This document shows, one piece after another, positions 2,484 to 61,563 of a DNA stretch of 64,000 bases. The number at the start of each line of letters is the position of its first letter. The stretch's first letter is position 1. The notes beneath the pieces were generated by a model that saw nothing but the letters and a program-made list of their open reading frames with translations, had not been told where the DNA came from and searched no databases. Made by a program: the position numbers and the translations under genes. The DNA is from Escherichia phage vB_EcoM-172859UKE1: sequence record MZ234025.1. One strand, given 5' to 3'.

Positions 2484-2489
2484 TAAAAA

Positions 2490-2512
2490 GGAGACTTCGG
2501 TCTCCTTTCGGG
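2490..2512 (+). terminator. UUCG-tetraloop hairpin after gene 41 (ggagacTTCGgtctcc)
   Basis: Perfect 6-bp stem with TTCG loop directly after the stop codon. Confidence 0.5.
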
Positions 2513-2571
2513 GTTTACATCTTCCTCTAGGCATGATATGATGAACTTACCCCAACCAAGAGGAAAACATT

Positions 2572-2946
2572 ATGAATATGTCTCAAGCAATTTTTACTGC
2601 AATCACCGAAAACACAACTGTTGAAGTAGTTTCTCCACTGGCAACCTACGTTATTCTTGCTCCTAAAACTATTGTATCTCGTATGGAAAACACAGGCAAA
2701 CGTATCGTACAAATAGTTGGAGCCGGAAATCAAAAACTTGATTATCTACGAACCATCAAAGCTTATGAACATTTCCAACTCGAAAAAGGTTCTCCTATTC
2801 AGGTAGAACTCGTAAATGGTGATATCGTTCGAGCAATGTTCCATCATTTCTATGCATTGAATGACCCATCTAAAGCGGTTCGTTTAATTGCATACGATGC
2901 AAACCAAAACGAAATCAACGCAGATATATCTAAATTACGTTTTTAA
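2572..2946 (+). CDS. hypothetical protein (124 aa)
   Basis: ORF with upstream SD (aggaaaacattATG); same strand as neighbours; no recognisable motif. Confidence 0.5.
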   Translation: MNMSQAIFTAITENTTVEVVSPLATYVILAPKTIVSRMENTGKRIVQIVGAGNQKLDYLRTIKAYEHFQLEKGSPIQVELVNGDIVRAMFHHFYALNDPSKAVRLIAYDANQNEINADISKLRF

Positions 2947-2996
2947 GTTTACTTCTCCAGTAGTTGTGTTATTATAGACCTATCAACTACTGGAGA
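2947..2996 (+). promoter_or_regulatory. Early sigma70-type promoter embedded in stem-loop (GTTTAC 2947-2952, TATTAT 2970-2975)
   Basis: 17-bp spacer; perfect 13-bp inverted repeat tctccagtagttg / caactactggaga flanks the -10. Confidence 0.6.
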
Positions 2997-3001
2997 ACAA
3001 A

Positions 3002-3319
3002 ATGAAAACCATCGATTGTAAAGCAGAATTTAAGATTTTTTATCACGGTTCAAGTAGTTCAGCTAACATCGAAAACATGCTTTGTCCTCCTGAGGAAACA
3101 GGAGTTCTGTCTGAAACTGGACGTAAGAAAAACTTGGATCGTGTATTCTTTACTGAAGATATAGGTTTAGCAAAGATTTATGCAGGACGAGCAGCACGCT
3201 CTTATGGAGGTGAACCACGTCTCTATCGAGTAATTTCTCCGGTAGATGTAGTTCAAATGAATGATACTAAAGGTGCTACAGTTTATCACGCTGAATGGGC
3301 ATTTTGCGAGGAAATATGA
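3002..3319 (+). CDS. small Arr-like ADP-ribosyltransferase candidate (105 aa)
   Basis: FYHGSS motif followed ~30 aa later by VFFTED and GEPRLYRV, resembling rifampin-ADP-ribosyltransferase (Arr) FYHGT...IYFS...YIYIVEP layout; SD ggagaacaaaATG; stop overlaps dmd start. Confidence 0.4.
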   Translation: MKTIDCKAEFKIFYHGSSSSANIENMLCPPEETGVLSETGRKKNLDRVFFTEDIGLAKIYAGRAARSYGGEPRLYRVISPVDVVQMNDTKGATVYHAEWAFCEEI

Positions 3320-3504
3320 GCAAATTAACTAAAGTTACTTTTATTGGCTGGTTTAAAAATGATAATATGTTCACTAAAGATATCATGTTATCAGGCGACC
3401 GTGAAGAAATCGAGTGGGTTGCGGTACAACTCGCTGAAGTGAACAGTGCACTTGTTAAAGCATTTCTTAATGATGAGAAAGTTTTCGAAGCAGATTTTCG
3501 ATAA
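3316..3504 (+). CDS. dmd: Dmd, antitoxin/discriminator of mRNA degradation
   Basis: MSKLTKVTFIGWFKNDNMFTKDI...EVNSALVKAF matches T4 Dmd (60 aa) as recalled; ATG 3316 preceded by gagga; ORF-track start 3295 is probably too far upstream. Confidence 0.8.
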   Translation: MSKLTKVTFIGWFKNDNMFTKDIMLSGDREEIEWVAVQLAEVNSALVKAFLNDEKVFEADFR

Positions 3505-3517
3505 TTTTAAAATAACT

Positions 3518-3560
3518 GTTTACAAGCACCACATACTGTGTTACTATCTTTCTATCAACT
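3518..3560 (+). promoter_or_regulatory. Early promoter (GTTTAC at 3518-3523) upstream of lipoprotein gene
   Basis: GTTTAC followed by A/T-rich -10 region ttactat. Confidence 0.45.
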
Positions 3561-3575
3561 ACAGAGGAAATTGAA

Positions 3576-3944
3576 ATGAAAAAATTAATCGCTTTAGCAA
3601 TGGTATTTGGATTAACCGGATGTGGTGCCCATGGCTTTATCCCTAATAACGTTGGCCAACTGATTTACAATCCGAATGTTAAACAATATGAACAACCTAA
3701 AGTTGAAGTGGAAGACCCGGTTACTGTAGGTAATCGAATGATTCAAGCTGATGCTCATGCTCAACGTTATCGTGATTCTGATACTGTAGCATTGTCAAAA
3801 GAACAACGCGTTAAAGAACATTGCTTACAGGCTACTGAAATCGCATTCATTCGCTATGTTGAAACAACCGGTAAAGAGCCTACCCAGAAACAAATCGCGA
3901 ATAACTACGTCCAGTGTATTGAACGTTTAAACAAATTTAATTAA
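3576..3944 (+). CDS. putative lipoprotein (signal peptide, lipobox LTGC)
   Basis: N-terminus MKKLIALAMVFGLTGCGA; strong SD gaggaaattgaaATG. Confidence 0.6.
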   Translation: MKKLIALAMVFGLTGCGAHGFIPNNVGQLIYNPNVKQYEQPKVEVEDPVTVGNRMIQADAHAQRYRDSDTVALSKEQRVKEHCLQATEIAFIRYVETTGKEPTQKQIANNYVQCIERLNKFN

Positions 3945-3947
3945 TTG

Positions 3948-3990
3948 GTTTACACCAAAGTTAAAACAAGATACTATAAACATAACAAAT
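3948..3990 (+). promoter_or_regulatory. Early promoter (GTTTAC 3948-3953, TACTAT about 3972-3977)
   Basis: Consensus -35-like GTTTAC and A/T-rich -10. Confidence 0.45.
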
Positions 3991-4005
3991 CAAGAGGAAA
4001 TTAAC

Positions 4006-4254
4006 ATGGAATTATTCGTAGCTAGTTCAGTAGCAGTTTTAATCGCAGGTATTGGTTCAATCATCATTTACATGTTGCCTTGGGTAATCGCACTTATTCG
4101 TGGCACAAAAAGCACAACAGCAATCTTCTTCGTATCTTTACTCTTTAACTGGACGATGGTTGGTTGGATTGGAACTTTAATTTGGTCTATCGTTGCCGAA
4201 AAGAAATCTGCTCTACAGCCTCAACAAGTAATTATTATTCGCGAAAAAGAATAA
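4006..4254 (+). CDS. small two-TM membrane protein, superinfection-immunity (Imm) family-like
   Basis: YMLPWVIALIRG...NWTMVGWIGTLIWS pattern resembles Imm-type small membrane proteins; SD agaggaaattaacATG. Confidence 0.5.
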   Translation: MELFVASSVAVLIAGIGSIIIYMLPWVIALIRGTKSTTAIFFVSLLFNWTMVGWIGTLIWSIVAEKKSALQPQQVIIIREKE

Positions 4255-4258
4255 ACTT

Positions 4259-4300
4259 GTTTACATTATAGATGGACTATAGTATAGTAGTCCTATCAAA
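4259..4300 (+). promoter_or_regulatory. Early promoter in stem-loop (GTTTAC 4259-4264; ggactat/atagtagtcc imperfect inverted repeat around -10)
   Basis: Same atagtagtcctatc cassette recurs at 24882 and 25392. Confidence 0.55.
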
Positions 4301-4317
4301 TCAACTAAGGAGTTAAA

Positions 4318-4611
4318 ATGAAAAAGTTATCATTGGCAGCAATCTTACTTGCAGTATCATGTGCACCGGCTCCAGTTACGGCAGGTTATGATAAAGACCT
4401 CTGTGAGTGGTCAATGACTGCAAATCAAGAAGATGTTGAACAACAAATCTTCTCTGATATCATGAACATCACTAAACGAGACCGTCCTAATATGGTTAAT
4501 AAAGTTGTTGAACAACTTAAGTCTGGCGGTAACATGCAGTACAACTATGTTTTGTATTGTGACCCTAATTTCGATAACAAAGATATCGTAACCGAAATCA
4601 CAGGTGAATAA
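4318..4611 (+). CDS. sp: Spackle periplasmic protein (superinfection exclusion)
   Basis: Signal peptide plus GYDKDLCEWSMTA...GGNMQYNYVLYCD matching T4 Sp (97 aa) as recalled. Confidence 0.85.
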   Translation: MKKLSLAAILLAVSCAPAPVTAGYDKDLCEWSMTANQEDVEQQIFSDIMNITKRDRPNMVNKVVEQLKSGGNMQYNYVLYCDPNFDNKDIVTEITGE

Positions 4612-4612
4612 C

Positions 4613-5263
4613 ATGATTTATTACATGCACAAAAATGCGCCATTTAAATATGGTAAATTTCCTAATGCGCAATGTTATAATATAACGCCGAATGAAAATA
4701 ATAACGGATATCATATTGGTGTAATTTTTGTAATTGTTAAAGATAACGAAATCGTTGCCTGGGCAGATTTTAAAGGTACAACATATGATGTTAATCCTGT
4801 GCCTTTCACATATTACAATATAATGGATTTGGCATATGATTATAATTGGTTTAATCATGACGCGTTGGTTCATATTGAAGGTGTAGGATTTGACATCTCC
4901 TATTCTAGCTATTCATTATGTCCTATGAGCCGAGCTCACGGTAAAGATGTATCATATCTTTCAATTCGGAAACGTGTAAACTTCAAACGTAGTACAGAGT
5001 ATGTTGGTGGACTCTTTGTTAAAGATAATAAAATAACCCGTATTAGTTATCCTCTAAGTGTAGGTCAAAAAGATGTTGATGTTGATTTAGACTTAACTGA
5101 AAATAACATTAATCATATTGCTTCTGTATATTTTGATATCGATGAAAAAATTGTAGTGTGTGGATACGAATTACCACCTGAAGAAAAGGCTGAAGCAATT
5201 GAAGTCGAATTAGAAATTTCTGTTGATGACCAAATATTTAATGCATTTATGAATCGAGGTTAA
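4613..5263 (+). CDS. hypothetical protein (216 aa; position of T4 61.2)
   Basis: ORF appears AT-rich by eye; ATG 4613 after aggtga; ORF-track start 4604 is GTG. Confidence 0.5.
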   Translation: MIYYMHKNAPFKYGKFPNAQCYNITPNENNNGYHIGVIFVIVKDNEIVAWADFKGTTYDVNPVPFTYYNIMDLAYDYNWFNHDALVHIEGVGFDISYSSYSLCPMSRAHGKDVSYLSIRKRVNFKRSTEYVGGLFVKDNKITRISYPLSVGQKDVDVDLDLTENNINHIASVYFDIDEKIVVCGYELPPEEKAEAIEVELEISVDDQIFNAFMNRG

Positions 5264-5264
5264 A

Positions 5265-5462
5265 ATGACTACTGCAATTTGCACGGGTTCTAAAATTAGT
5301 GTTTTTACAAGTTTTGAAGATTATGAAGTTGTTTCAAAACACCAATACCATATTAGCGTAAAAGCTAATGATGGTGTAATTTGGAATATTCCACAGTATG
5401 AAGGCACTACATATGAAGTCACAGATATAAATGGTGACAAAGCAATCTTTGTAATTGATTAA
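5265..5462 (+). CDS. hypothetical protein (65 aa)
   Basis: ORF immediately after preceding stop; same strand. Confidence 0.4.
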   Translation: MTTAICTGSKISVFTSFEDYEVVSKHQYHISVKANDGVIWNIPQYEGTTYEVTDINGDKAIFVID

Positions 5463-5481
5463 ATATACTCAGGAGGTACCT

Positions 5482-5949
5482 ATGGGTATTATTAACACTG
5501 CAATAGATTCTGTTTACGCATATAAGTTTATTCGACTAATGCAAAAACCTTTTACCGAATGGAAAGCATACGAAGCCAAAATCATCGATGAACGTGGAAG
5601 TGTTCTTAAACGTCCTTCCACTCCTGAAGAGAAAGCGGCTTATACACCTTTTCATGCTTCAGTTCGTTCAATGAAGCGAATGATGAGCACTGTTCCAGGT
5701 CTTAATGGAATGGCCTCAATGATGTCTGCCTGGAGTGCTGTAGCTTCACGCTATAACATTACGGAAGAACAGCAGAAAGAAATATTTAAAGAACTCCCTT
5801 TATTTGAGGATATGGTTGCTGGTGATTCAGGTGGCAGCCCTCAAGCTATTGCATCAGGAACAACTACAGGTGCAGTAGTAAATAAAGGTCCAGAACAAAT
5901 TCCTTCCAAGAAAAGAAAGCGAATTAAAGTAAATATTAATAAGTTGTGA
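5482..5949 (+). CDS. hypothetical protein with basic C-terminal tail (KKRKRIK)
   Basis: ATG 5482 preceded by aggagg; ORF-track start 5455 is upstream of the SD. Confidence 0.5.
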   Translation: MGIINTAIDSVYAYKFIRLMQKPFTEWKAYEAKIIDERGSVLKRPSTPEEKAAYTPFHASVRSMKRMMSTVPGLNGMASMMSAWSAVASRYNITEEQQKEIFKELPLFEDMVAGDSGGSPQAIASGTTTGAVVNKGPEQIPSKKRKRIKVNINKL

Positions 5950-5988
5950 TAAGATGGCCTTATTAATTTAAGGCCTCTGGAGAATACT

Positions 5989-7011
5989 ATGGCTGAATGG
6001 ATAGATAATGAATTTGCTTATCGCGCGTTTTCTCACCTACCTCGTTTTAGACAAATCAATAATTCAAGCACATTTAAATTAACATTTCGATGTCCAGTTT
6101 GTGGCGACTCCCAGACAGATGCAATGAAAGCTCGCGGATGGTATTATGGCGGTACTCCTGGTAATGTACATTGTTATAATTGCCAATACCACAATACAAT
6201 TTCCGGATACTTAAAAGAGTATGATGAAGAGCTTTATCGCGAATATCTAATGGAAGTTCGTAAAGAAAAAGCTAGAATGGAACCAAAGATTGAAAAGGTT
6301 CCTGAACATAAACCAGAACCGGAGAAAAAGACTATAAATTCTTTGCCGTCTTGTTCTCGTCTGGACAAGCTGCCCGAAGAGCATCCTATTGTGAAATATG
6401 TTAAGTCTCGGTGTATTCCTAAAGAATCGTGGAACAGATTATGGTTCACATTAGAATGGCCTAAATTGGTCAACAAGATTCAACCTGGTACGTATAAGAA
6501 AGAGATTCCCGAACCACGTTTAGTGATTCCTATTTTTAATAAAGACGGGAAGGCCGAGTCATTCCAAGGACGTGCACTTCGTAAAGATGCTCCTCAGAAA
6601 TATATCACTATTAAAGCGTTTGAGTCTGCAACAAAAATTTATGGTGTTGAACGTGTTAAGGAAGGAGACGTCTGGGTAATGGAAGGTCCTATTGATAGTT
6701 TATTCATACCCAATGCAATCGCTATTACAGGCGGCTCAATAGATTTAGATGTGGTACCATTTAAAGAACGTCGGGTATGGGTAATGGATAATGAACCTAG
6801 GCATCCAGATACTATAGCTCGTATGAAGCGATTAGTTGATGCAGGCGAACGTGTCATGTTCTGGGACCGAGCTCCATGGAGATCAAAGGATGTGAATGAT
6901 ATGGTAATGAAAGAAAATGCAACACCACAAGAAATTTTAGAATACATGAAACAGAATATTTCAAGTGGGTTGCATGCTAAAATGAGATTATCTCATTATT
7001 CTAAGATTTAA
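5989..7011 (+). CDS. 61: gp61 DNA primase
   Basis: Zn-finger CPVCGDS...CYNCQ near N-terminus and Toprim-like region; T4 synteny. Confidence 0.9.
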   Translation: MAEWIDNEFAYRAFSHLPRFRQINNSSTFKLTFRCPVCGDSQTDAMKARGWYYGGTPGNVHCYNCQYHNTISGYLKEYDEELYREYLMEVRKEKARMEPKIEKVPEHKPEPEKKTINSLPSCSRLDKLPEEHPIVKYVKSRCIPKESWNRLWFTLEWPKLVNKIQPGTYKKEIPEPRLVIPIFNKDGKAESFQGRALRKDAPQKYITIKAFESATKIYGVERVKEGDVWVMEGPIDSLFIPNAIAITGGSIDLDVVPFKERRVWVMDNEPRHPDTIARMKRLVDAGERVMFWDRAPWRSKDVNDMVMKENATPQEILEYMKQNISSGLHAKMRLSHYSKI

Positions 7012-7205
7012 ACAAGCCCTATAATAGCAAAGGCCAAATCGACTACAGTATCCAATGGAACAGAAGGAACTATAATACCATTAGCAACTAACAATGGTGC
7101 GATACCGAAGTTCCATGAAATAATGCCACCTACAACTATTGCGGCGATAGCAGTTTTCTTTTTATTGCCTTTAATAGCATTGATTAACGATGGAAGTTTA
7201 AACAT
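7008..7205 (-). CDS. small hydrophobic membrane protein (65 aa), antisense to the early gene block
   Basis: Consensus SD AAGGAG 5 nt upstream of ATG on minus strand; two hydrophobic segments; lies in 61-56 gap and overlaps the last 4 nt of 61. Confidence 0.45.
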   Translation of the reverse strand: MFKLPSLINAIKGNKKKTAIAAIVVGGIISWNFGIAPLLVANGIIVPSVPLDTVVDLAFAIIGLV

Positions 7206-8632: not shown

Positions 8633-8808
8633 ACAAGATAGTTAAATGGTTTAAAAGCTGGGACGATGGTGTCGGTCCAGAAGATTGGCTGGATGTTCTT
8701 GAAGAGAATATGGCTAAAGAATTCCAGAAACATGAAGAAAAGCTCGTCGAAGATGAAGGCGAACGTATTGTAAAACTTTATATGGGTGAACCATCGAGGA
8801 AATTATAA
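8629..8808 (+). CDS. hypothetical small protein (59 aa)
   Basis: ATG overlaps previous stop (ATGA) and its stop overlaps next ATG (TAATG); below ORF-track size cutoff. Confidence 0.3.
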   Translation: MNKIVKWFKSWDDGVGPEDWLDVLEENMAKEFQKHEEKLVEDEGERIVKLYMGEPSRKL

Positions 8809-9272
8809 TGGATGCTATGCTATTTAAAATGTATTTGCTTGAAGCCAAGTCATTTAAACATATACCAGTGGAAGATAAGACTCCACTAGAAATAGCTATT
8901 CTCATTAACAAAAGTCTAAATAATCCGCAATATATCGTAGAAGAATTCTGCAAATTGCAGATTCCTAAAGGTTACAAAATTCGTGTAGAGCGAGTTGGAG
9001 CTATTACTCGTTCTAAAAATTCTCCGTTTAGTCTTGAAGAAGGCATAAAGGACTTAGGTTATGAATCTACGGAAAATGCAGTTTATGTGAATCCTGAAAA
9101 GCGTTTAGACTTGTTTGAAAAGCGAGACCATAAGTATTTTGCCAAAAAATACTTTATTACATCATTAGCAGATTTAGTCCATTTGCAACGAGCTATTTGG
9201 AAATTTTTTAAGACAAAAGGTGTAGCACTAGAAACATTCTCTGAACCGGCTAGTTTTTATCTAGGTGAATAA
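8808..9272 (+). CDS. hypothetical protein (154 aa)
   Basis: ORF with SD gaggaaattataATG. Confidence 0.5.
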   Translation: MDAMLFKMYLLEAKSFKHIPVEDKTPLEIAILINKSLNNPQYIVEEFCKLQIPKGYKIRVERVGAITRSKNSPFSLEEGIKDLGYESTENAVYVNPEKRLDLFEKRDHKYFAKKYFITSLADLVHLQRAIWKFFKTKGVALETFSEPASFYLGE

Positions 9273-9453
9273 TATGGACCTTATGAGTATGTTTGACGAG
9301 CCTGAAGTTGAGGCTCCTAAAGTGCATCGTAGTGAACTTGTTGATGAACTAGATAGTATTATACAACGACACGGCTTTAGTTTACCTGTTGAAGCCCTGA
9401 AAGACCTTGCATCTTATTATGACGACCCTCCACCATGGAGTCCTTGGAAATGA
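9265..9453 (+). CDS. hypothetical protein (62 aa)
   Basis: ORF overlapping previous stop. Confidence 0.35.
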   Translation: MNNMDLMSMFDEPEVEAPKVHRSELVDELDSIIQRHGFSLPVEALKDLASYYDDPPPWSPWK

Positions 9454-9669
9454 AAGAGAAATTGAAAGAGAAATTCTTACTAGAAATCAAGGAAAAAGAC
9501 TTTGAGACATGGTATCGAATGGTGAAAGGGCTGACATTGCTTTTTAAAGCATCGTTATTCATGTTAGAACAACCTGGTCCTGATGGGCCTTTAGTAGGAA
9601 AGCTTAAAAAGTAGTTTACATTCCCTCCTCTCGTGTTATGATAGGCTTATCTTTAAATGGAGGTCTATC

Positions 9670-14748: not shown

Positions 14749-15204
14749 ATGATTACTATTGGTGAAATTAAGCGTGTATCAACTGCATCCCGGTCTAAAG
14801 CCGCAGGTCGTCTGGTTGAAGTGGTAGGACTTCGCACAAATGGCATGGGACGCATTAAAGAAGTTAAAGTTCGAATCATTCCTAGTTTTGGACGTCAGGA
14901 TACTCAGCACGCTTACGTAAGTCCTAAATTCTTGGAAACTCCTGTGAGCGCTCATTTTGCTTCTACTGAACCTAATGCACAGTTCAAATGGGCCTTGTGT
15001 AAAGGTGTTGAATTCCAGACTGATAAAGAATTTGACTTCATCGATGAATACGGTTATCCAAGCAAAACTGATACTATGTGCGGCTTCATTAGTGACCAAT
15101 GGGTTGAAGATGGTGAAAAGTTATACAATATCGTATTCTTAGGTGACTTCCGAGTTGTTAAAGAATCTGAAATCACTCGTTATGTGTCTCCTCGTAAAGC
15201 TTAA
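14749..15204 (+). CDS. hypothetical protein, tandem paralog family member 2
   Basis: VSTASRSKAAGRLVEV... and C-terminal GFISDQWVEDGEKLYNIVFLGDF shared with next gene. Confidence 0.55.
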   Translation: MITIGEIKRVSTASRSKAAGRLVEVVGLRTNGMGRIKEVKVRIIPSFGRQDTQHAYVSPKFLETPVSAHFASTEPNAQFKWALCKGVEFQTDKEFDFIDEYGYPSKTDTMCGFISDQWVEDGEKLYNIVFLGDFRVVKESEITRYVSPRKA

Positions 15205-50515: not shown

Positions 50516-50926
50516 ATGAAAGATATTGCCGCCGAATATTCCTTTATTAAATATACAGAATTGGAGCTATTAGAAGATGCAACAATTAAAACAGTTGATG
50601 TCCCTAATAAGAAAAATGTCATATACGCTATTGCTATAGATGACGAACTTGTGTATATTGGTAAAACCAAGAATTTAAAGAAACGCATTAACTATTATCG
50701 AACAGCCATAAATCGAAAAGACCAGACTTCAGATTCAAGAAAATCACTTATGATTTTGGATGCCTTAATGCAAGGCAAAAAGGTTGAATTCTGGGCCCGC
50801 CAATGTTTTGACCTTTCAGTCACCAACGAACTTGGTTCAATGACCATCGCAACAATGGACCTTGAAGAACCGCTTTTTATCAAAAAGTTCAACCCGCCTT
50901 GGAATATCCAACATAAGAAAAAGTAG
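50516..50926 (+). CDS. denA: endonuclease II (GIY-YIG family)
   Basis: VIYAIAIDDELVYIGKTKNLKKRINYY GIY-YIG motif; 136 aa as T4 DenA. Confidence 0.85.
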   Translation: MKDIAAEYSFIKYTELELLEDATIKTVDVPNKKNVIYAIAIDDELVYIGKTKNLKKRINYYRTAINRKDQTSDSRKSLMILDALMQGKKVEFWARQCFDLSVTNELGSMTIATMDLEEPLFIKKFNPPWNIQHKKK

Positions 50927-50955
50927 TTTACATACCACAAGGATTGTGGTACAAT
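50926..50955 (+). promoter_or_regulatory. Early promoter (GTTTAC 50926-50931, TACAAT 50950-50955)
   Basis: 18-bp spacer upstream of rnlA. Confidence 0.5.
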
Positions 50956-50971
50956 TTAAAAAACTAACTGA

Positions 50972-52105
<1,134 letters not shown>

Positions 52106-52167
52106 TGGTTTACAAACACCAAGGATGGTGTTACTATGGCTTTTATCAACAACACGAGGAGAAAATT

Positions 52168-52668
52168 ATGAATATGCAATTGATTACTAACGATATGGTC
52201 GTAACCGCTTTTGGAGACACAACTGACGGAATCCGGGTCTTTAAGAAAGGACGTCCAGTTGGTTATCTTACTGACCTACGTGTTACACTGGCCAAAAATC
52301 TTAAAAAGAAAGTAAAACAAAAAGAGTATTCCACCCGATACGCTGAAGAGAAACGCGAAGCGATGCCGGAAGCAGTTAATGCCATGGTAGAATTTCTTCA
52401 AAACAATTTGACTAAATATGACGCTAATGTGTTCATTAATATTAGTCAACCAAACGTACATATCGCAGGTATAAAATTCTACATTATTTGCGACCCTCTT
52501 ACCGACAAATTCAACCGCCTCGGAATTTCAAGTCCGTATCATACAGCAGAAGAGTTGTGTGTATTGTTTGAATCGTACAAAATCCAGTGTGATGGTTTGA
52601 AAACCGTTCTTATCAATGGATTATCCCGAGATGAAATCATTGAGATTATTAAAACATGCTTAAAGTAA
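52168..52668 (+). CDS. alc: Alc (host transcription shut-off on cytosine DNA) position
   Basis: ATG 52168 after acgaggagaaaatt; promoter GTTTAC 52108; ORF-track start 52105 overlaps promoter. Confidence 0.55.
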   Translation: MNMQLITNDMVVTAFGDTTDGIRVFKKGRPVGYLTDLRVTLAKNLKKKVKQKEYSTRYAEEKREAMPEAVNAMVEFLQNNLTKYDANVFINISQPNVHIAGIKFYIICDPLTDKFNRLGISSPYHTAEELCVLFESYKIQCDGLKTVLINGLSRDEIIEIIKTCLK

Positions 52669-53012
52669 ATCCTATTTACGCTATAGTAGCAGCTTTTGCT
52701 CTAGTTTCTACGGTAACAATAGTTGTCTTAAACAACAAAGTTGATTCGTTGAATACTGAATTAGCTTCTGTCAAAGAGACCGCTAAAAACAATGCTAAAG
52801 TATTAGACGACTTCAAGGTTCAATATCAGTCAATCGAAGAAATGACTTATAAGAACCGTGTTTTAGTTGACCAACTTAAGGCCGAAAATGAAAAGCTCCG
52901 TAAGGATTCGAAGAAGAAGAACGTGGTGGCAAGTAAACCAGGATTGGTCGAAAAACAAATCAACAAGTCCTTCGATTCCTTTGCAGAAGACCTCAGGAAG
53001 CTCTCAGAATGA
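52656..53012 (+). CDS. membrane-anchored coiled-coil protein (118 aa)
   Basis: N-terminal TM segment IYAIVAAFALVSTVTIVVL. Confidence 0.45.
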   Translation: MLKVNPIYAIVAAFALVSTVTIVVLNNKVDSLNTELASVKETAKNNAKVLDDFKVQYQSIEEMTYKNRVLVDQLKAENEKLRKDSKKKNVVASKPGLVEKQINKSFDSFAEDLRKLSE

Positions 53013-53299
53013 TTAAATTAATCGCAGTTGTATTATCTATTGGCATTTTGGCTGGATGTGCCCAGGATGTGCCCTTAAGCCCTAAAGAAACTTTACATCC
53101 GCCATGGCCTGAATCTATTGTTGAATATAACCAGAAATGGCAAGTAAAGGTTATTGATGGTAATCCATGGGTTGGAATGCCATTTGAAGACTCTCAAGAA
53201 TTTCGTATCTGGTTAAACGACGTAAAAAGATATGTACATGACCAGAAGACTATGTTATGTTATTATCGTAGTGGTTTAAAAGAGGAAAAATGCCAATGA
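53009..53299 (+). CDS. putative lipoprotein (lipobox LAGC)
   Basis: MIKLIAVVLSIGILAGCAQ. Confidence 0.5.
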   Translation: MIKLIAVVLSIGILAGCAQDVPLSPKETLHPPWPESIVEYNQKWQVKVIDGNPWVGMPFEDSQEFRIWLNDVKRYVHDQKTMLCYYRSGLKEEKCQ

Positions 53300-53514
53300 C
53301 TAAAGAACAGCATGAATACATTAAAGGGCTTATCTATGAATCTGAAATGGCGGCTATGATTTATGGGCGCCAGATTCAACGATTAGAATCTTTGCCTCCG
53401 ACTAATGACCGCTTGTTAGTTCAGTCTCGTGCTAATCTGAAAAATGAATATCAGAATAAGTGGGCAGTAGCGACTAAAGCTCTTCATGAGTATATTGAAT
53501 CTTTAGTAAAATAG
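53290..53514 (+). CDS. hypothetical protein (74 aa)
   Basis: Overlapping start with previous gene. Confidence 0.4.
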   Translation: MPMTKEQHEYIKGLIYESEMAAMIYGRQIQRLESLPPTNDRLLVQSRANLKNEYQNKWAVATKALHEYIESLVK

Positions 53515-53560
53515 TTTACAAACTCTCGGGAGCAGAGTATAATGCTCCTATGGATAATTG
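53514..53560 (+). promoter_or_regulatory. Early promoter cassette GTTTACAAACTCTCGGGAGCAGAGTATAATGCTCC
   Basis: Near-identical to cassette at 25630; -10 inside stem. Confidence 0.65.
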
Positions 53561-53571
53561 AGGAAATCTAA

Positions 53572-53870
53572 ATGAAAACATTACTAGAGAATTACATCAA
53601 ACGGTCTGATGAGTATATTGATATCTGCCGTGGAATGTCACTTGTCAATTATGACAAAGATGCAGCAAAGGCACTAGATGAAGCAGGTAAAGCTCTTCGT
53701 AAAGCTGCTAAAGAAAAAGGGTTGGATTTGCAACAACTCAAAAGTCATATGATTAAATTTATTTCTTCAAACGTTAGAAGTACGTCAATTAATAAAAACG
53801 TCGCTGAAATTAATAAAGACCGGCGAGAGCATAACATTCGTATTCTTGAAACTTTCTTAGGAATAAAATA

Positions 53871-53871
<1 letters not shown>
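53572..53871 (+). CDS. hypothetical protein (99 aa)
   Basis: SD attgaggaaatctaaATG. Confidence 0.45.
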
Positions 53872-54957
<1,086 letters not shown>

Positions 54958-54958
<1 letters not shown>

Positions 54959-55149
54959 TGAAACGATTATATGAAGTGATTGAGGCCATCGAACGGCATA
55001 AAGAATATTTGTTTGTAGCCTGGCCTTTAGTAAATGGACAGTTCGGTATTGATGTGCTGGACTATGAGCATGAAGAACGTTTGGACGGTGGTATATTTGA
55101 TAACGTCGACCAGGCAATTGAATGGTTAAATGAAAACTATGTACGATAA
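54958..55149 (+). CDS. hypothetical protein (63 aa)
   Basis: TAATG overlap with pseT stop. Confidence 0.35.
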
Positions 55150-55354
55150 ACATCATGAAATCGAAGATGAAGCATACAAAATGCTTCGTAAACTAGTGGG
55201 ACTTAATATGAGTCCTACATTAATCAACAAACTCGCAGGAATTCGTAATGATCTGAATACTCGTTACAAAGGCGAATATCATGTAGAGTTTGTTCCTGTA
55301 GGTGAACCGACCGAGCGATTTGTTGTTCGAGTTAAAGTAAATACTGTACACTGA
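55130..55354 (+). CDS. hypothetical protein (74 aa)
   Basis: ORF in cd.x region. Confidence 0.35.
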   Translation: MKTMYDKHHEIEDEAYKMLRKLVGLNMSPTLINKLAGIRNDLNTRYKGEYHVEFVPVGEPTERFVVRVKVNTVH

Positions 55355-55361
55355 GGTAATT

Positions 55362-55637
55362 ATGTTCCCAACTTATTCTGAAATTGTAAAGGTAGTCTTC
55401 AGTCAGATTATTGCTAATAATATGTTTGAAGTGCTTGATAATGCAGCCGAACTCAGAGTTCATGCTCAACTAACTCATGTACTCAATGCTTTGCTCCCAG
55501 ACCAAGTAGATTCTATTGCTATTACTCTTCTCCCTGGGTCTGCACACGTCATAGTGGTATTTGATCTTGACGGTGATTTAGTTATCCAATGTGATATCAA
55601 TTTCGGTACACAAAAAATTGAATGCAAAGCAATTTAA
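55362..55637 (+). CDS. hypothetical protein (91 aa)
   Basis: SD tgaggtaattATG. Confidence 0.4.
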   Translation: MFPTYSEIVKVVFSQIIANNMFEVLDNAAELRVHAQLTHVLNALLPDQVDSIAITLLPGSAHVIVVFDLDGDLVIQCDINFGTQKIECKAI

Positions 55638-55697
55638 TGGTTTACAACATGGTGGAGTTGTGATACTATAACTCTACCAACAAATGAGGAAATAGAA

Positions 55698-55934
55698 ATG
55701 CTAAGTGAAAACCCAATTACAGTACACGAATTTCAGATTAAAGTAAAAGAATTTGCTCAAGCACTCATCAATAAAGTGTCTGAACGTTTCCAAGATGCAA
55801 CATTACGAGTTATTCAAGAATCTCCACGTTCTTTTCTCATAATCGTTAATCCTAAAGATGGTGACCAAATTACTAATCTTAAATTAGGCAGTGATGGTCT
55901 TGTTGAAGCAACTCGAGTATATGGAACACTATAA
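55698..55934 (+). CDS. hypothetical protein (78 aa)
   Basis: Promoter GTTTAC 55640 and SD aatgaggaaatagaaATG. Confidence 0.45.
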   Translation: MLSENPITVHEFQIKVKEFAQALINKVSERFQDATLRVIQESPRSFLIIVNPKDGDQITNLKLGSDGLVEATRVYGTL

Positions 55935-56054
55935 TGAGAGCTATCTCATTACTATCGAGAATGGTCATAAATCTGAGCACTACCAACTTAGCCTGTCTAA
56001 TCCGGTTAAAGGTATTGTTGAATCAGAATCTGTTTATATCTCCTAAGGATTGTT

Positions 56055-57047
56055 ATGTTACCTGTCGTCGGAAAACTTATTTCTCCAAAAGAACTGGCTG
56101 AGATTATTCCTTTGTCGGAAGCTTACGCATCACAAGTGGCTTCTCATCGCGAACAAGTTAATTCGATTATGAACGGTGAAGACCCACGCAAACTTATTGT
56201 TGTAGGTCCTTGTTCAATTCATGACCCTATTGCTGCTGTTGAATACGGCAAACGTCTGGCTGAACTTCAAACTCGTCTTCCTAATGTTCTGTTAGTGATG
56301 CGCGTTTATTTTGAAAAGCCTCGAACTACCGTAGGTTGGAAAGGTCTTGTAAATGATCCATATCTTGACGGAAGTTTTGATATGAACCACGGTCTTATAG
56401 TTGCACGAACATTGTGTCGTAAACTTCTACGTATGGGACTTCCATTAGCAACTGAAGTATTAGACCCATTCACGATTAAGTATCTTTCTGGTATTTTCTC
56501 ATGGGTTGCTATTGGCGCCCGTACGACTGAAAGTCAGACACATCGTGAAATTGCTTCAGGTCTACCGATGTGCGTAGGCTTCAAGAACGCAACCAATGGT
56601 TCTATTAAAGTAGCTACAGACGCGATGTATAGTGCCGCCTGGCCTCATCGGTATATGGGTATGGACGTCGATGGTACTGTAGGCATTGTTGAAGCTGAAG
56701 GTAATCAGAATACGCATATCGTATTGCGTGGCGGGACCAACGGCCCGAACTATCATTCTTCTGATATTCAAGAAGCTTCTAACAAAGCAAGGGCAGTAGG
56801 TCTGAATCATTATGTAATGGTTGACTGTAGCCATGCAAACGCTGCTGGGCATTATAGCAATCAAATTGGTATTGGTAAAAATTTAGCAGCTAATGATTTG
56901 GTCAAAGGAATTATGATAGAATCATTCCTACATGAAGGAAATCAAAAAATTTCTGATAATATGTCCTATGGCGTTTCCGTTACCGATGCGTGCATCAGTT
57001 GGGAACAAACTAAAGAGCTGTTAACTTATATTAATAAGGTTCAATAA
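56055..57047 (+). CDS. 3-deoxy-D-arabino-heptulosonate-7-phosphate (DAHP) synthase, class I (AroG/AroF-like)
   Basis: Colinear with E. coli AroG as recalled: VVGPCSIHDP, MRVYFEKPRTTVGWKGL.NDP, AIGARTTESQ.HRE.ASGL, GFKN.T.G.IKVA; stop overlaps cd ATG. Confidence 0.8.
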   Translation: MLPVVGKLISPKELAEIIPLSEAYASQVASHREQVNSIMNGEDPRKLIVVGPCSIHDPIAAVEYGKRLAELQTRLPNVLLVMRVYFEKPRTTVGWKGLVNDPYLDGSFDMNHGLIVARTLCRKLLRMGLPLATEVLDPFTIKYLSGIFSWVAIGARTTESQTHREIASGLPMCVGFKNATNGSIKVATDAMYSAAWPHRYMGMDVDGTVGIVEAEGNQNTHIVLRGGTNGPNYHSSDIQEASNKARAVGLNHYVMVDCSHANAAGHYSNQIGIGKNLAANDLVKGIMIESFLHEGNQKISDNMSYGVSVTDACISWEQTKELLTYINKVQ

Positions 57048-57628
57048 TGAAAGCTAGCACATATCTTCAAATTGCTTATTTGATTTCTCAAGAATCAAAA
57101 TGTTGTTCATGGAAAGTTGGTGCCGTCATTGAAAAAGATGGACGCATTATTTCTACAGGTTATAATGGCTCTCCTTCAGGTGGTACAAACTGTTGCGAAC
57201 ATGCATCCGAAAACGGCTGGTTGAAGAATAAACCAAGCCCGGCTATTTCTGATGGGCAGAAAGAAGGCACTACAGCATTTGGACGGGCAGATAATTTTGT
57301 TTTGGCTAAAGAACATCGGGCTGCTCATAGTGCATGGTCTGCTAATAACGAAATCCATGCAGAATTGAATGCAATTTTGTTTGCAGCTCGTAAAGGTAAT
57401 TCTATTGAAGGTGCTACGTTATATACTACGCTTTCTCCGTGTCCTGATTGCACTAAAGCTATCACACAATCAGGCATTAAAAAGGTCGTATATGCAGAAT
57501 TATATGACCGGTCTCCTGAAAATTGGGCAGACATTCTTAAACAAGCTGGTATTGAAGTAATTCAGTACTCTCGTAATAATCTTCGTTCTCTGAATTGGGA
57601 ACAAATTCGAAACTTTTGTGGTGAATAA
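57047..57628 (+). CDS. cd: dCMP deaminase
   Basis: Zn-binding HAELNAI...PCPDC motifs; 193 aa as T4 Cd. Confidence 0.9.
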   Translation: MKASTYLQIAYLISQESKCCSWKVGAVIEKDGRIISTGYNGSPSGGTNCCEHASENGWLKNKPSPAISDGQKEGTTAFGRADNFVLAKEHRAAHSAWSANNEIHAELNAILFAARKGNSIEGATLYTTLSPCPDCTKAITQSGIKKVVYAELYDRSPENWADILKQAGIEVIQYSRNNLRSLNWEQIRNFCGE

Positions 57629-57629
57629 T

Positions 57630-57926
57630 ATGATTTTAACTGAACAAGAAACTATGGTTCTTCGTGAACGTATTAAAACTATTCTGTCTGTAGGTGTTCA
57701 TTGTGTTGTATTTGAAAAGGCTAATGGTGATGTTCGTACGATGTTTGCCTCCCGTGATGAACTTGAAGTCAAATATGAAAATAGAAATCCAGCAACAGAA
57801 GTTCGTTCTGAACCTCGTGAATCAGTTCGAGCATTCGATACCGAGTTAGGTCAGTGGCGTTCTTTCCGCCTTGATAAAGTAATTTCGGTTGATGGTACTC
57901 CGGTAGAACGTTTGCTTCTTATGTAA
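57630..57926 (+). CDS. hypothetical protein (98 aa)
   Basis: ATG 57630 two nt after cd stop. Confidence 0.4.
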   Translation: MILTEQETMVLRERIKTILSVGVHCVVFEKANGDVRTMFASRDELEVKYENRNPATEVRSEPRESVRAFDTELGQWRSFRLDKVISVDGTPVERLLLM

Positions 57927-57983
57927 TATGCTTTACGAATAGTATGGTATTATTAATCTATCGTCAAACAACAAGGAAATAAG

Positions 57984-58316
57984 ATGTCTGAAGTACAACT
58001 CCCAATTCGTGCTGTTGGTGAATATGTCATTCTGGTTTCTGAACCCGCTCAAGCAGGTGATGAAGAAGTTACCGAATCAGGACTTGTGATTGGTAAACGT
58101 GTTCAAGGTGAAGTTCCTGAACTATGTGTAGTTCATTCTGTAGGTCCTGATGTTCCTGAAGGTTTTGTTGAAGTCGGTGATTTGACTCCACTACCAGTTG
58201 GACAAATTCGAAATGTTCCGCATCCATTTGTGGCTTTGGGACTTAAACAACCTAAAGAAATTAAACAGAAATTCGTAACATGCCACTATAAAGCTATTCC
58301 GTGTCTTTATAAGTGA
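57984..58316 (+). CDS. 31: gp31 co-chaperonin (GroES-like)
   Basis: [21 protein letters not shown]...; 110 aa; near-identical to T4 gp31 as recalled. Confidence 0.9.
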
Positions 58317-58317
58317 T

Positions 58318-58325
58318 ATAAATAA
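58318..58325 (+). promoter_or_regulatory. Late promoter TATAAATA upstream of rIII
   Basis: Exact TATAAATA right after gene 31 stop. Confidence 0.5.
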
Positions 58326-58440
58326 CTATATGAAGAGAACACTCTTCTAAGCGGTAGCCTACAACTGAGAGACTTGTCGAAAGAAGGTGAAATTCAGACG
58401 AACGTGGCTACTAAATATTATCTCGAATTGAGAATTTAAA

Positions 58441-58689
58441 ATGATTAAACAATTACAACACGCTCTTGAACTGCAACGAAACGCATGGAATAATGGTCAT
58501 GAAAACTACGGCGCATCTATTGATGTTGAAGCCGAAGCTCTTGAAATCCTTCGTTATTTCAAACATCTGAACCCGGTCCAGGCAGCTTTGGCTTCTGAAC
58601 TGGAAGCAAAAGATGAACTGAAATATGCTAAGCCTTTGGCTTCTGCAGCTCGTAAAGCAGTACGTCATTTTGTTATTACCCTGAAATAA
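58441..58689 (+). CDS. rIII: RIII lysis-inhibition accessory protein
   Basis: MIKQLQHALELQRNAWNNGHENYGASIDVEAEALEILRYF; 82 aa as T4 RIII. Confidence 0.85.
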   Translation: MIKQLQHALELQRNAWNNGHENYGASIDVEAEALEILRYFKHLNPVQAALASELEAKDELKYAKPLASAARKAVRHFVITLK

Positions 58690-58883
58690 GTGTTAGGTGA
58701 GTCACTACCTTAGTGTGAAGTTAAAATCGAGGAGCCGTCGAACTATGTTTTACGGTGTACCTCTTGAATGTTGACGAGGTTTATGGTTATCCTGTCGTTA
58801 AATATCCAAAACCTATGTTCCCTTCGAGGGCTTGCGCAGGCAATGTCAATAAGTCCTGCATTTTCATTTAAAGAGAATTTATA

Positions 58884-59063
58884 ATGGCAAAACAAGCTAA
58901 AGCAAAGAAAGCAGTTGAAAAGAAAGTTGATGGTACCTCTAAACGCGCTGGATACAAGCGTGGGTCGAACTATCGTATTAATCAAACAGTTGAGAAGATC
59001 ATGCGCAGAGCACGTGCAGTTCTTCGAGATGATGCTTCTCGTTTTGGAAAGGTTATTGCATAA
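58884..59063 (+). CDS. small basic protein (59 aa), unannotated by ORF track
   Basis: ATG 58884; MAKQAKAKKAVEKKVDG...; followed directly by terminator hairpin. Confidence 0.4.
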   Translation: MAKQAKAKKAVEKKVDGTSKRAGYKRGSNYRINQTVEKIMRRARAVLRDDASRFGKVIA

Positions 59064-59068
59064 TTTTA

Positions 59069-59090
59069 GGGAGACTTCGGTCTCCCTTTT
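59069..59090 (+). terminator. Terminator gggagacTTCGgtctccc + tttt
   Basis: Identical palindrome to 44161. Confidence 0.65.
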
Positions 59091-59122
59091 GTGCGTTTAG
59101 GGCAGAAAAAGTTTAAAAAGAT

Positions 59123-59152
59123 GTTTACTCTCCTGTAGGATGTGTTACTATA
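59123..59152 (+). promoter_or_regulatory. Early promoter (GTTTAC 59123-59128, ...TACTATAGAC)
   Basis: Upstream of ORF 59194. Confidence 0.5.
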
Positions 59153-59193
59153 GACTTGTACCACCTAATCGATAAAACAAACCGGAGAACAAA

Positions 59194-59562
59194 ATGAAAA
59201 TCAATCTGAACTCATACATCAAATGTAAAGACCACGACGGTTATAAAGCTATCGAAATTAAAGAATTCCAGTGGATGTTATACAAAGAGCAATTTGAGTT
59301 CGTAGGTTGTATGACCCCTGAAGGTCCTTCAGATGATTTCTCTTGGAAAATTGTGTTAGCAAACTTTTTCACAGGTGACACATACGAATTAAAAACTATT
59401 ATTACCGGTAAAATTCGTTCAGAAACATATGTTGACGAAGAAACCGGTTACTCTGAAGATGTTACATGGTATCAAAATGGACGCATTACAGCAGATAACC
59501 TGATCGAAAAAATGAAAGCCAAAGGTGTTTTAAATTTAGACAATTGGATTAAAGTTGCATAA
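59194..59562 (+). CDS. hypothetical protein (122 aa)
   Basis: SD accggagaacaaaATG. Confidence 0.5.
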   Translation: MKINLNSYIKCKDHDGYKAIEIKEFQWMLYKEQFEFVGCMTPEGPSDDFSWKIVLANFFTGDTYELKTIITGKIRSETYVDEETGYSEDVTWYQNGRITADNLIEKMKAKGVLNLDNWIKVA

Positions 59563-59566
59563 AACA

Positions 59567-59606
59567 GTTTACTTTGGTACAGGTTATGTTATTATAGACC
59601 TGTACC
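59567..59606 (+). promoter_or_regulatory. Early promoter in stem-loop (GTTTAC 59567-59572, TATTAT 59590-59595; ggtacaggt/acctgtacc)
   Basis: Perfect 9-bp inverted repeat flanks -10. Confidence 0.6.
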
Positions 59607-60904: not shown

Positions 60905-61112
60905 ATTAATCCAGAAATTGTTTGGTACGGAAATGATTGAAGTTACTTATCGTGTAACCGACGTTTTTCCATATTACGCGGAAAACCGTTTAGAACCATA
61001 CGTTACGTCAATTAAAATGCCTAAAAATGACAGAAATTTATCTATCGAAGACCGTATACCTGGATACGGACATTGGGCTGATGTTGAAATTATAAGTGTT
61101 AAAGATGTCTGA
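60894..61112 (+). CDS. hypothetical protein (72 aa)
   Basis: Overlapping start with previous gene. Confidence 0.4.
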   Translation: MLNKLIQKLFGTEMIEVTYRVTDVFPYYAENRLEPYVTSIKMPKNDRNLSIEDRIPGYGHWADVEIISVKDV

Positions 61113-61563
61113 ATTAGAAATAAGAAGTAATTTCAAATGGCCGTCATGTGCATTAAGTAACTTTGCTCAATGGCCTTTTGTTATGGATGGTATTCAATTC
61201 GGAGGTCTTGAAGGATTTCTCCAAGGATGTAAGGTGAAAAATGTTGAACAACAAAGACGTATATTTGGGTTGTCTGGATTGGCTGCACAGCAAGCTGGAA
61301 GGTCTTACGCAAGAGCTCAGGACCGTGGGACTCTCTTCTGGTTAGGAGTTCCATTTTCAAGATACTCCGAAGCGTGGAAAGAATTATACACAAATGCATA
61401 TTTTGAAGCCGCGATCCAAAACAAGGGGTTTCGTGATGCCTTACAAGCCTCTAAAGGAAAAATTTTGAAGCACAGCATGGCCAGCCACCTAACAAAAGAT
61501 GATACAATACTAACTGAAGATGAATTTATTGACGTGTTAAACCTATTAAGAGACTCTTTATGA
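61105..61563 (+). CDS. NADAR (YbiA/DUF1768-like) domain protein
   Basis: FKWPSCALSNFAQWPF...GLEGFLQGCK...F motif layout typical of NADAR/YbiA family; ATG 61105. Confidence 0.5.
   Translation: MSELEIRSNFKWPSCALSNFAQWPFVMDGIQFGGLEGFLQGCKVKNVEQQRRIFGLSGLAAQQAGRSYARAQDRGTLFWLGVPFSRYSEAWKELYTNAYFEAAIQNKGFRDALQASKGKILKHSMASHLTKDDTILTEDEFIDVLNLLRDSL

Follow-up and report, generated by a model that had tools for sequence, protein, structure and literature searches.

The Mosigvirus form of a T-even early accessory region, flanked by helicase gene 41 and primase gene 61, in Escherichia phage vB_EcoM-172859UKE1

Gene content of the interval

We analyzed a 64,000-nucleotide stretch of Escherichia phage vB_EcoM-172859UKE1 (sequence record MZ234025.1; the whole stretch is called the window below), and we focused on the accessory genes between helicase gene 41 (1041–2483), which forms the left flank, and primase gene 61 (5989–7011), which forms the right flank. 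Nine open reading frames (ORFs), all on the plus strand, occupied positions 2572–5949: 2572–2946, 3002–3319, 3316–3504, 3576–3944, 4006–4254, 4318–4611, 4613–5263, 5265–5462 and 5482 (or 5455)–5949. These coordinates agreed exactly with those of an earlier sequence-only reading of the same DNA. The phage is a Mosigvirus (RB69-like), and its DNA from 2484 to 5988 was 98.5% identical to that of Escherichia phage JS09. A single match covering at least 80% of this segment was found in 152 phage records, nearly all at 95–99% identity, and all of these were RB69-like Mosigvirus. Four of the ORFs could be named directly after their RB69 counterparts: 2572–2946 corresponds to RB69ORF041c, 3002–3319 to RB69ORF040c, 5265–5462 to RB69ORF033c, and 5482–5949 to gp61.1.

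The sequence-only reading had placed in this interval a dmd gene, a lipoprotein gene, a gene for an Imm-family-like protein with two transmembrane (TM) segments, and spackle. Pfam family matches showed that all four are present, and homology searches confirmed that the ORFs do belong to the Dmd, Imm and Sp families. The dmd gene (62 amino acids [aa]; 3316–3504, plus strand) matched PF17587 (E = 1e-20, 74 bits against a cut-off of 27), and its product was 56% identical to T4 Dmd. Against PDB it matched 5i8j (E = 1.5e-33) and 5hy3_B, the T4 Dmd chain ‘Antitoxin Dmd’ (E = 1.3e-17). By homology, dmd encodes an antitoxin-like inhibitor of RnlA/LsoA RNase toxins.

Next in order is imm.1 (122 aa; 3576–3944, plus strand), a lipoprotein gene of family DUF5481 (PF17578, E = 2e-9, 38 bits against a cut-off of 27). 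Its product was 33–35% identical to T4 Imm.1 and carries the lipobox LTGC with Cys16, where T4 Imm.1 has LAGC. The T4 RefSeq record (NC_000866; locus record 9137–9514) labels T4 imm.1 as ‘iduronate sulfatase’; this 125-aa lipoprotein matches only DUF5481, and the label looks like an annotation error. The following gene, imm (82 aa; 4006–4254, plus strand), encodes a two-TM inner-membrane superinfection immunity protein that matched PF14373 (Imm_superinfect; E = 2e-15, 57 bits against a cut-off of 27.9). It was 64–65% identical to T4 Imm along all of its 82 aa, the C-terminal QVIIIREKE among them, and its hydrophobic segments lie at residues 1–34 and 40–59 on the Kyte-Doolittle scale, which is a crude measure rather than a dedicated TM predictor.

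The sp (spackle) gene (97 aa; 4318–4611, plus strand) encodes, by homology, a periplasmic inhibitor of the gp5 tail lysozyme. It matched T4_Spackle (PF25676, E = 2e-41, 141 bits) and PDB 6x6o (E = 1e-38 over residues 1–97), with 66% identity to T4 Sp. Its N-terminus has a signal-like hydrophobic segment at residues 4–24, and the mature-form PDB chain 7cn6 aligned from residue 23.

The 216-aa ORF at 4613–5263 (plus strand) lies at the position of T4 61.2, for which the sequence-only reading named a role against DarTG-type defence. This assignment proved sound: the gene is adfA, anti-DarT factor A by homology (PF23813, E = 6e-120, 399 bits, residues 1–216 against profile positions 1–211; PMC11257639, PMC9391042), and its product was 67–69% identical to T4 61.2. 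In the published work, His164 of AdfA enables DarT1 binding and neutralization (PMC11257639). The present phage has a histidine at RB69 position 164, which is residue 168 here (window 5114–5116); the aligned segments read NNINHIASVYF in the window, NIINHIASVYF in T4 and NNINRIASVYF in RB69 (Arg164). The main anti-DarTG1 factor is AdfN (gp30.3), which is truncated by a frameshift in RB69 (PMC11257639). In the window, the adfN gene (61105–61563, plus strand), homologous to T4 gene 30.3 and encoding a NADAR-family anti-DarTG1 enzyme, was intact and 96% identical to that of T4.

The remaining gene with a predicted role is the ORF040c homologue (105 aa; 3002–3319, plus strand), whose stop codon overlaps the dmd start (ATGA). 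Its product has an ADP-ribosyltransferase (ART) fold of minimal, Arr/Tpt1-like type, a property that the sequence-only reading had not noticed. This gene is treated separately below.

One gene known from relatives was absent. The site of tifA (T4 61.4; family DUF7279 in Pfam) is reduced to 3505–3517, where RB69 and JS09 carry about 206 bp more. When JS09 and RB69 were aligned with the window, a gap of 206 bp stood out cleanly, and tblastn found no tifA match anywhere in the 64-kb window; the compared genes lie at 3526–3738 in the extracted JS09 locus and at 4751–4963 in that of RB69. TifA is a ToxN inhibitor whose gene is co-transcribed with dmd in T4 (PMC9391042). Because RB69-type TifA (at least 95% identity) occurred in 69 records, and Mosigvirus-type Imm and AdfA each in 153, tifA appears to be missing, as in the present phage, from some 55% of the Mosigvirus genomes sequenced (~84 of 153 records), making its absence a common polymorphism.

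Promoters and transcription units

The sequence-only reading had assigned each of the nine genes its own early promoter, and this did not hold. We searched for a strict T4-type early promoter motif, GTTTACW-N16-17-TAYNAT, and found five motifs for nine genes, one in each of five intergenic gaps of 55–88 bp. The strict form started at 2513, 2947, 3518 and 3948, and a variant with the −10 sequence TATAGT at 4259. All lie on the plus strand. The first (2513–2542, GTTTACA-N17-TATGAT) serves ORF041c; the second lies inside an inverted repeat (2947–3002) upstream of ORF040c; the third (3518–3547) and fourth (3948–3977), both GTTTACA-N17-TACTAT, serve imm.1 and imm, respectively; and the fifth (4259–4288, GTTTACA-N17-TATAGT) serves sp, adfA, ORF033c and 61.1. 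Across the 64-kb window the strict motif occurred at 15 sites, all on the plus strand, against 0.22 expected, with 4 of the 15 within the 3.4-kb interval. The other strict-motif sites, also on the plus strand (e.g., 9614, 14133, 15638, 27937, 30435 and 50926–59595), provide a ready map of early units elsewhere in the window.

At the remaining junctions there was no promoter motif. ORF040c and dmd share ATGA, sp and adfA are 1 nt apart, as are adfA and ORF033c, and the 19-nt gap between ORF033c and 61.1 contains only a Shine-Dalgarno sequence. The gap between 61.1 and gene 61 likewise had no promoter motif. Because motifs occurred only in the five gaps, and the remaining genes overlap or abut their upstream neighbors, the nine genes form five units rather than nine: ORF041c alone, ORF040c-dmd, imm.1 alone, imm alone, and sp-adfA-ORF033c-61.1. 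A loose sigma-70 scan returned 24 sites against 15.3 ± 3.6 expected; many were weak and within genes, and these candidates were not counted as promoters.

Folding of the gaps against shuffled sequences revealed several hairpins. Just 3′ of gene 41, on the plus strand, lies a hairpin GGAGAC-UUCG-GUCUCC followed by UUU (2487–2508); the fold of 2484–2574 reached −24.4 kcal/mol (z = −2.4), and this terminator-like element marks the left border of the island. A second plus-strand hairpin, GGCCUUA-N6-UAAGGCC (5957–5980; −13.9 kcal/mol, z = −2.5), lies between 61.1 and gene 61, and a small one covers the −10 region of the fifth motif (−15 kcal/mol, z = −2.1). The most stable was the inverted repeat at 2947–3002, with arms of 14–19 nt that are 89% complementary (−22.1 kcal/mol, z = −4.7; 0 of 200 shuffles as stable). 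In this hairpin the −10 box of the promoter lies in the loop, and the GGAG Shine-Dalgarno sequence of the ART gene lies in the 3′ arm. The ART ribosome-binding site would therefore be hidden in read-through transcripts and exposed in transcripts from the proximal promoter. A ribosome-binding-site hairpin combined with a promoter is a layout familiar from other T4 genes. No stable stem-loop of the promoter-early stem-loop (PeSL) kind was found at 3505–3575 or 3945–4005.

A probable counter-defence and superinfection-exclusion region

We concluded, with a probability of about 0.9, that helicase gene 41 and primase gene 61 here enclose the early accessory region of T-even phages in its Mosigvirus (RB69-type) form, in which nine genes in five early units combine counter-defence with superinfection exclusion. 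The mechanisms below are transferred by homology from experiments on T4 and RB69. The five units would be read by host RNA polymerase immediately after infection, and their products would act on two fronts. In the cytoplasm, Dmd would serve as a stoichiometric inhibitor that binds and blocks RnlA/LsoA RNase toxins, and AdfA, also a stoichiometric inhibitor, would bind DarT1 and prevent ADP-ribosylation of phage DNA. In the envelope, Imm in the inner membrane would block DNA entry of later T-even phages (PMC7677548, PMC6832632), and Spackle in the periplasm would inhibit the gp5 tail lysozyme of later-arriving phages, as T4 Sp inhibits gp5 lysozyme (PMC7677548). Variation in gene content would come from gain and loss of whole promoter-plus-gene cassettes, with tifA, the relocated imm.1-imm pair and the extra genes as instances. 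Such turnover would most likely proceed by recombination between similar promoter/leader sequences, that is, by PeSL-type shuffling, which together with PeSL cassettes themselves is described in T4-type phages (PMC2839356, PMC4122927).

Several observations weigh against this interpretation. Identity to the characterized T4 proteins is moderate, at 56% for Dmd, 64% for Imm, 66% for Sp and 67% for AdfA. Four of the nine genes (ORF041c, imm.1, ORF033c and 61.1) have no known role, and whether the locus is called a functional ‘island’ or a hyperplastic dumping ground is a matter of interpretation. The imm.1-imm relocation cannot be traced to definite crossover points, and a strong stem-loop occurred in only one of the five promoter gaps. 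Finally, among T-even phages neither AdfA's presence nor its allele predicted DarTG1 resistance, and deletion of adfA from T4 had no phenotype (PMC11257639); because of these results, the AdfA histidine allele may matter little in vivo.

The most serious alternative is that the locus has no functional theme. The 41–61 interval would then be a hyperplastic region that accumulates promoter-bearing cassettes by illegitimate or short-homology recombination, and anti-toxin and exclusion genes would stand together by coincidence. Gene content does differ among T4, Dhakavirus and Mosigvirus, a single genus has members with and without tifA, and ORF041c is an ORFan. The density of promoters is high, promoter/leader segments are repeated, and PeSL-mediated shuffling has been documented in other T4-type phages (PMC2839356, PMC4122927). 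However, of the five genes whose role is known or predicted, four bear on conflict, either with the defences of the host or with phage competitors, and an anti-toxin–antitoxin (anti-TA) island was proposed by others because dmd, tifA and adfA cluster in this way (PMC9391042). Moreover, turnover by cassettes would be compatible with a functional theme. We regard mere coincidence as unlikely, and we retain the interpretation of a counter-defence and exclusion region.

The ADP-ribosyltransferase-fold gene upstream of dmd

The solved folds closest to the ORF040c product were Arr (rifampin ADP-ribosyltransferase) and Tpt1/KptA (RNA 2′-phosphotransferase). Neither the protein nor its family profile gave a Pfam, NCBIfam or PDB sequence match. 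A few GenBank records already name the gene ‘putative (rifampin) ADP-ribosyl transferase’. Homologues were numerous, with more than 149 clusters at 60–99% identity, and the gene was present in 609 phage records, including phages of Klebsiella, Acinetobacter, Aeromonas, Proteus and Vibrio. The family is 60–90% conserved across Straboviridae of very different hosts and is absent from T4: there was no Tequatrovirus among the matches listed, and T4 dmd directly follows gene 41.

A profile search of 1.84 billion representatives returned 222 relatives of the ART, many of them domains in proteins of up to 3,924 aa. When ten large relatives were scanned against Pfam, three (P0134, P0151 and P0129) scored 27–29 bits, above the Arr-ms cut-off of 25. 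By sequence, the window ART can thus be linked to Arr-ms only transitively, through these homologues. Other domains among the ten were ART-PolyVal, NUDIX, portal, 2H phosphoesterase (a weak Acb1 match), GNAT and Toprim, and this domain company is typical of phage polyvalent proteins.

We compared the family with the NAD-site pattern of a histidine in an HG[ST] motif, a central tyrosine and a C-terminal acidic residue. The candidate residues H15, G16 and Y60 did not vary among 46 close and 26 distant members. E103 was invariant only in the T4-like subfamily and was not alignable in many distant members. A possible reading, though less likely than not, is that the 105-aa Arr/Tpt1-like protein has ADP-ribosyltransferase activity and serves the island as an additional effector of counter-defence or host takeover. 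It could, for example, modify the ends of RNA or DNA, or a protein of host defence. The putative enzyme might be controlled in two ways: the promoter-in-hairpin cassette could gate its synthesis, and a functional link could exist to the translationally coupled Dmd. Should it prove active, this mini-ART would add a fourth type to the ADP-ribosyltransferases of T-even-like phages, which include Alt, ModA and ModB.

A second alternative concerns this gene and its neighbor. Iyer et al. 2022 (PMC9503650) predicted in silico a TA pair made of a ‘p0068-family’ ART and Dmd in phages of Escherichia, Shigella and Salmonella, and the pair found here matches that prediction. On this proposal, ART-dmd would be a phage-borne type II TA module with the ART as toxin and Dmd mainly neutralizing it, so that the left half of the interval would be an addiction or regulatory module and not an anti-RnlA device. 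The gene arrangement fits such a module, in that the ART stop and dmd start overlap, the dmd Shine-Dalgarno sequence lies within the ART gene, and one promoter motif stands upstream of the pair with none between the two genes. Adjacency of ART and dmd was seen both in Mosigvirus and in Dhakavirus VR5. The occurrence of the ART domain as a module of very large multidomain ‘polyvalent’ phage proteins, beside other effector domains, points in the same direction, and the hairpin able to sequester the ART ribosome-binding site in read-through transcripts suggests controlled ART dosage. In contrast, T4 has dmd right after gene 41 and no ART. In Klebsiella, Acinetobacter, Aeromonas and Proteus phages, where the ART is 60–75% conserved, the downstream ORFs were not Dmd by Pfam and were mutually unlike, and a more distant Vibrio homologue (34% identity) had no same-strand downstream gene. 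Furthermore, RnlA and LsoA are experimentally established host targets of Dmd (PDB 5hy3; PMC9391042).

We rejected an obligate ART–Dmd TA linkage, given that in five other genera the gene downstream of the ART is not Dmd or is missing, and that T4 dmd lacks an ART partner. Because each gene occurs without the other, the pair is not obligate. A TA module with Dmd directed mainly against the ART seems improbable to us, and we keep to the reading of Dmd as an inhibitor of host RNase toxins. The conserved mini-ART translationally coupled to dmd is the one item of the locus worth an experiment, which would also test the published ART–Dmd TA hypothesis.

Position and ancestry of imm.1-imm

The sequence-only reading had observed that an Imm-like gene adjoins sp here and had stated that T4 imm maps elsewhere. 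Both points were borne out. T4 imm.1-imm was found between genes 43 and 42, and the gene beside sp, with its full-length identity of 64–65% to T4 Imm, is a true imm orthologue. In T4 and in Mosigvirus, imm.1 lies directly upstream of imm, indicating that the pair travels together. That the gene is instead a paralogue with another role, the real imm lying elsewhere in the genome, is extremely unlikely: PF14373 takes in a broad range of small membrane proteins and the 42–43 region lies outside the window, but the match to T4 Imm runs end to end and includes QVIIIREKE, exactly one matching place (a single imm copy) occurred in each of 802 phage records, the RB69 43–42 interval is annotated without imm, and imm.1 precedes imm here as in T4.

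Because imm comes right after gene 43 in Salmonella phage S16, Gaprivervirus VR20 and Cronobacter phage VP8, we infer that the 43–42 interval is the widespread position of imm.1-imm and that the place beside sp is derived in Mosigvirus. In RB69 the 43–42 interval holds a run of sugar-metabolism-like genes. Beside gene 43, the 42.1-like RB69ORF054c (RB69 locus 14824–14934) aligned to the small ORF of the T4 imm-42 spacer (T4 locus 8700–8890) with 76% mean column identity. The RB69 ORF has the look of a remnant of the place where imm originally lay, and it is consistent with imm.1-imm having left.

We also compared the spacers. On its left, the spacer upstream of imm.1 is similar to the T4 sp promoter (~21 of 24 nt), and on its right it is similar to the T4 imm.1 leader (CTATCAACTAC). 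The same leader motif, CTATCAACTAC, also precedes the ART gene. Spacers of the interval share stretches such as AACTGTTTAC and CTATCAACTAC; one shared promoter/leader stretch (D1) spans 33 nt at 76%. These shared stretches could supply short homologies for recombination. Exact crossover points for the relocation were sought and set aside: the candidates were not diagnostic, with promoter/leader motifs shared at several cassettes.

Remaining genes and flanking features

The ORF041c homologue (124 aa; 2572–2946, plus strand) is a Mosigvirus-restricted ORFan (phrog_10668, ‘unknown’) and was 99% identical to RB69ORF041c. A search of 5.8 billion proteins turned up only two clusters of homologues, at 98% and 52% identity, and searches of Pfam, NCBIfam and PDB sequences gave only noise. 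The match to the phosphoheptose isomerase 3trj (E = 0.058) was at noise level and was discarded; the AF2 single-sequence model had a pLDDT of 52 and was unusable.

The ORF033c homologue (65 aa; 5265–5462, plus strand; phrog_3249) was 97–98% identical to its RB69 and JS09 counterparts, and a search of the 14.5-kb T4 locus gave no match to it. Directly upstream of the primase gene lies 61.1 (5482–5949, plus strand), which encodes a basic protein (pI 9.7) in its full-length form of 155 aa. This length is the widely conserved one, with 112 clusters at 41–99% identity across Straboviridae. T4 61.1 (54 aa) matched only residues 102–141 of the window protein, and the RB69 gene is split into ORF032c and 61.1, while that of JS09 is in one piece.

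Outside the interval, the window starts with uvsX (20–697), followed by gene 40 (669–1031) and then gene 41. A hydrophobic 65-aa ORF on the minus strand (7008–7205), equivalent to RB69ORF029w, overlaps the end of gene 61 and is the only minus-strand gene in this part of the window.

Comparison with known systems

The spacers share with PeSL cassettes a promoter of consensus TTTACW-N17-TAYWAT in short intergenic cassettes beside variable early genes. The likeness is strongest at 2947–3002, where the promoter lies within a strong stem-loop. The interval differs from that model in that this is the only strong stem-loop among the five gaps; one gap has a weak structure (4255–4317, z = −2.1), and the other three lack a stable structure.

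At 105 aa, the window ART is smaller than Arr, Tpt1/KptA or AcrF11, the last of which is likewise a small ART that acts in anti-defence. The window ART differs from them also in its GRKKNL motif, which is invariant.

In T4, the gene order is 41, dmd, 61.4, sp, 61.2, 61.1, 61, with imm.1-imm between 43 and 42. The interval resembles this locus in its flanks, genes 41 and 61, and in that both cluster anti-toxin factors that are transcribed early. Orthology, at 56–75% identity, extends to dmd, sp, adfA and the C-terminal part of 61.1. The two differ in that T4 has tifA and lacks ORF041c, the ART gene and ORF033c, in that T4 imm.1-imm lie 6 kb away, between 43 and 42, and in that T4 61.1 is a 54-aa remnant. 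The arrangement is therefore not identical to T4 61.1–61.5, a possibility that had been raised along with the sequence-only reading; it is instead the layout already annotated in RB69.

The RB69 order is 41, ORF041c, ORF040c, dmd, 61.4, imm.1, imm, sp, 61.2, ORF033c, ORF032c+61.1, 61, and JS09 is alike but has 61.1 unsplit. RB69 (RB69p031–p041, NC_004928), JS09 and about 150 other Mosigvirus share the same genes, order and orientation at 90–100% protein identity. Relative to RB69 and JS09, the window lacks 61.4/tifA. Relative to RB69 alone, AdfA has a histidine here in place of Arg164, and 61.1 is one ORF, as in JS09, rather than split. For host-range prediction, which is a modest practical use of these results, the phage can be described as lacking tifA, carrying the DarT1-neutralizing AdfA allele and having an intact adfN.

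The T4 counterpart of this locus was proposed as an ‘anti-TA island’ by Srikant et al. in 2022 (PMC9391042), from the clustering of dmd, tifA and adfA. Because the RB69 layout was already annotated and this concept already published, the interpretation offered by the sequence-only reading was right but not new. The locus is of a known kind throughout and adds nothing new: its gene order is that of RB69, its proteins belong to known families whose named functions come from T4 and RB69 work, the island idea dates from 2022, and the pairing of an ART with Dmd had likewise been predicted in print.

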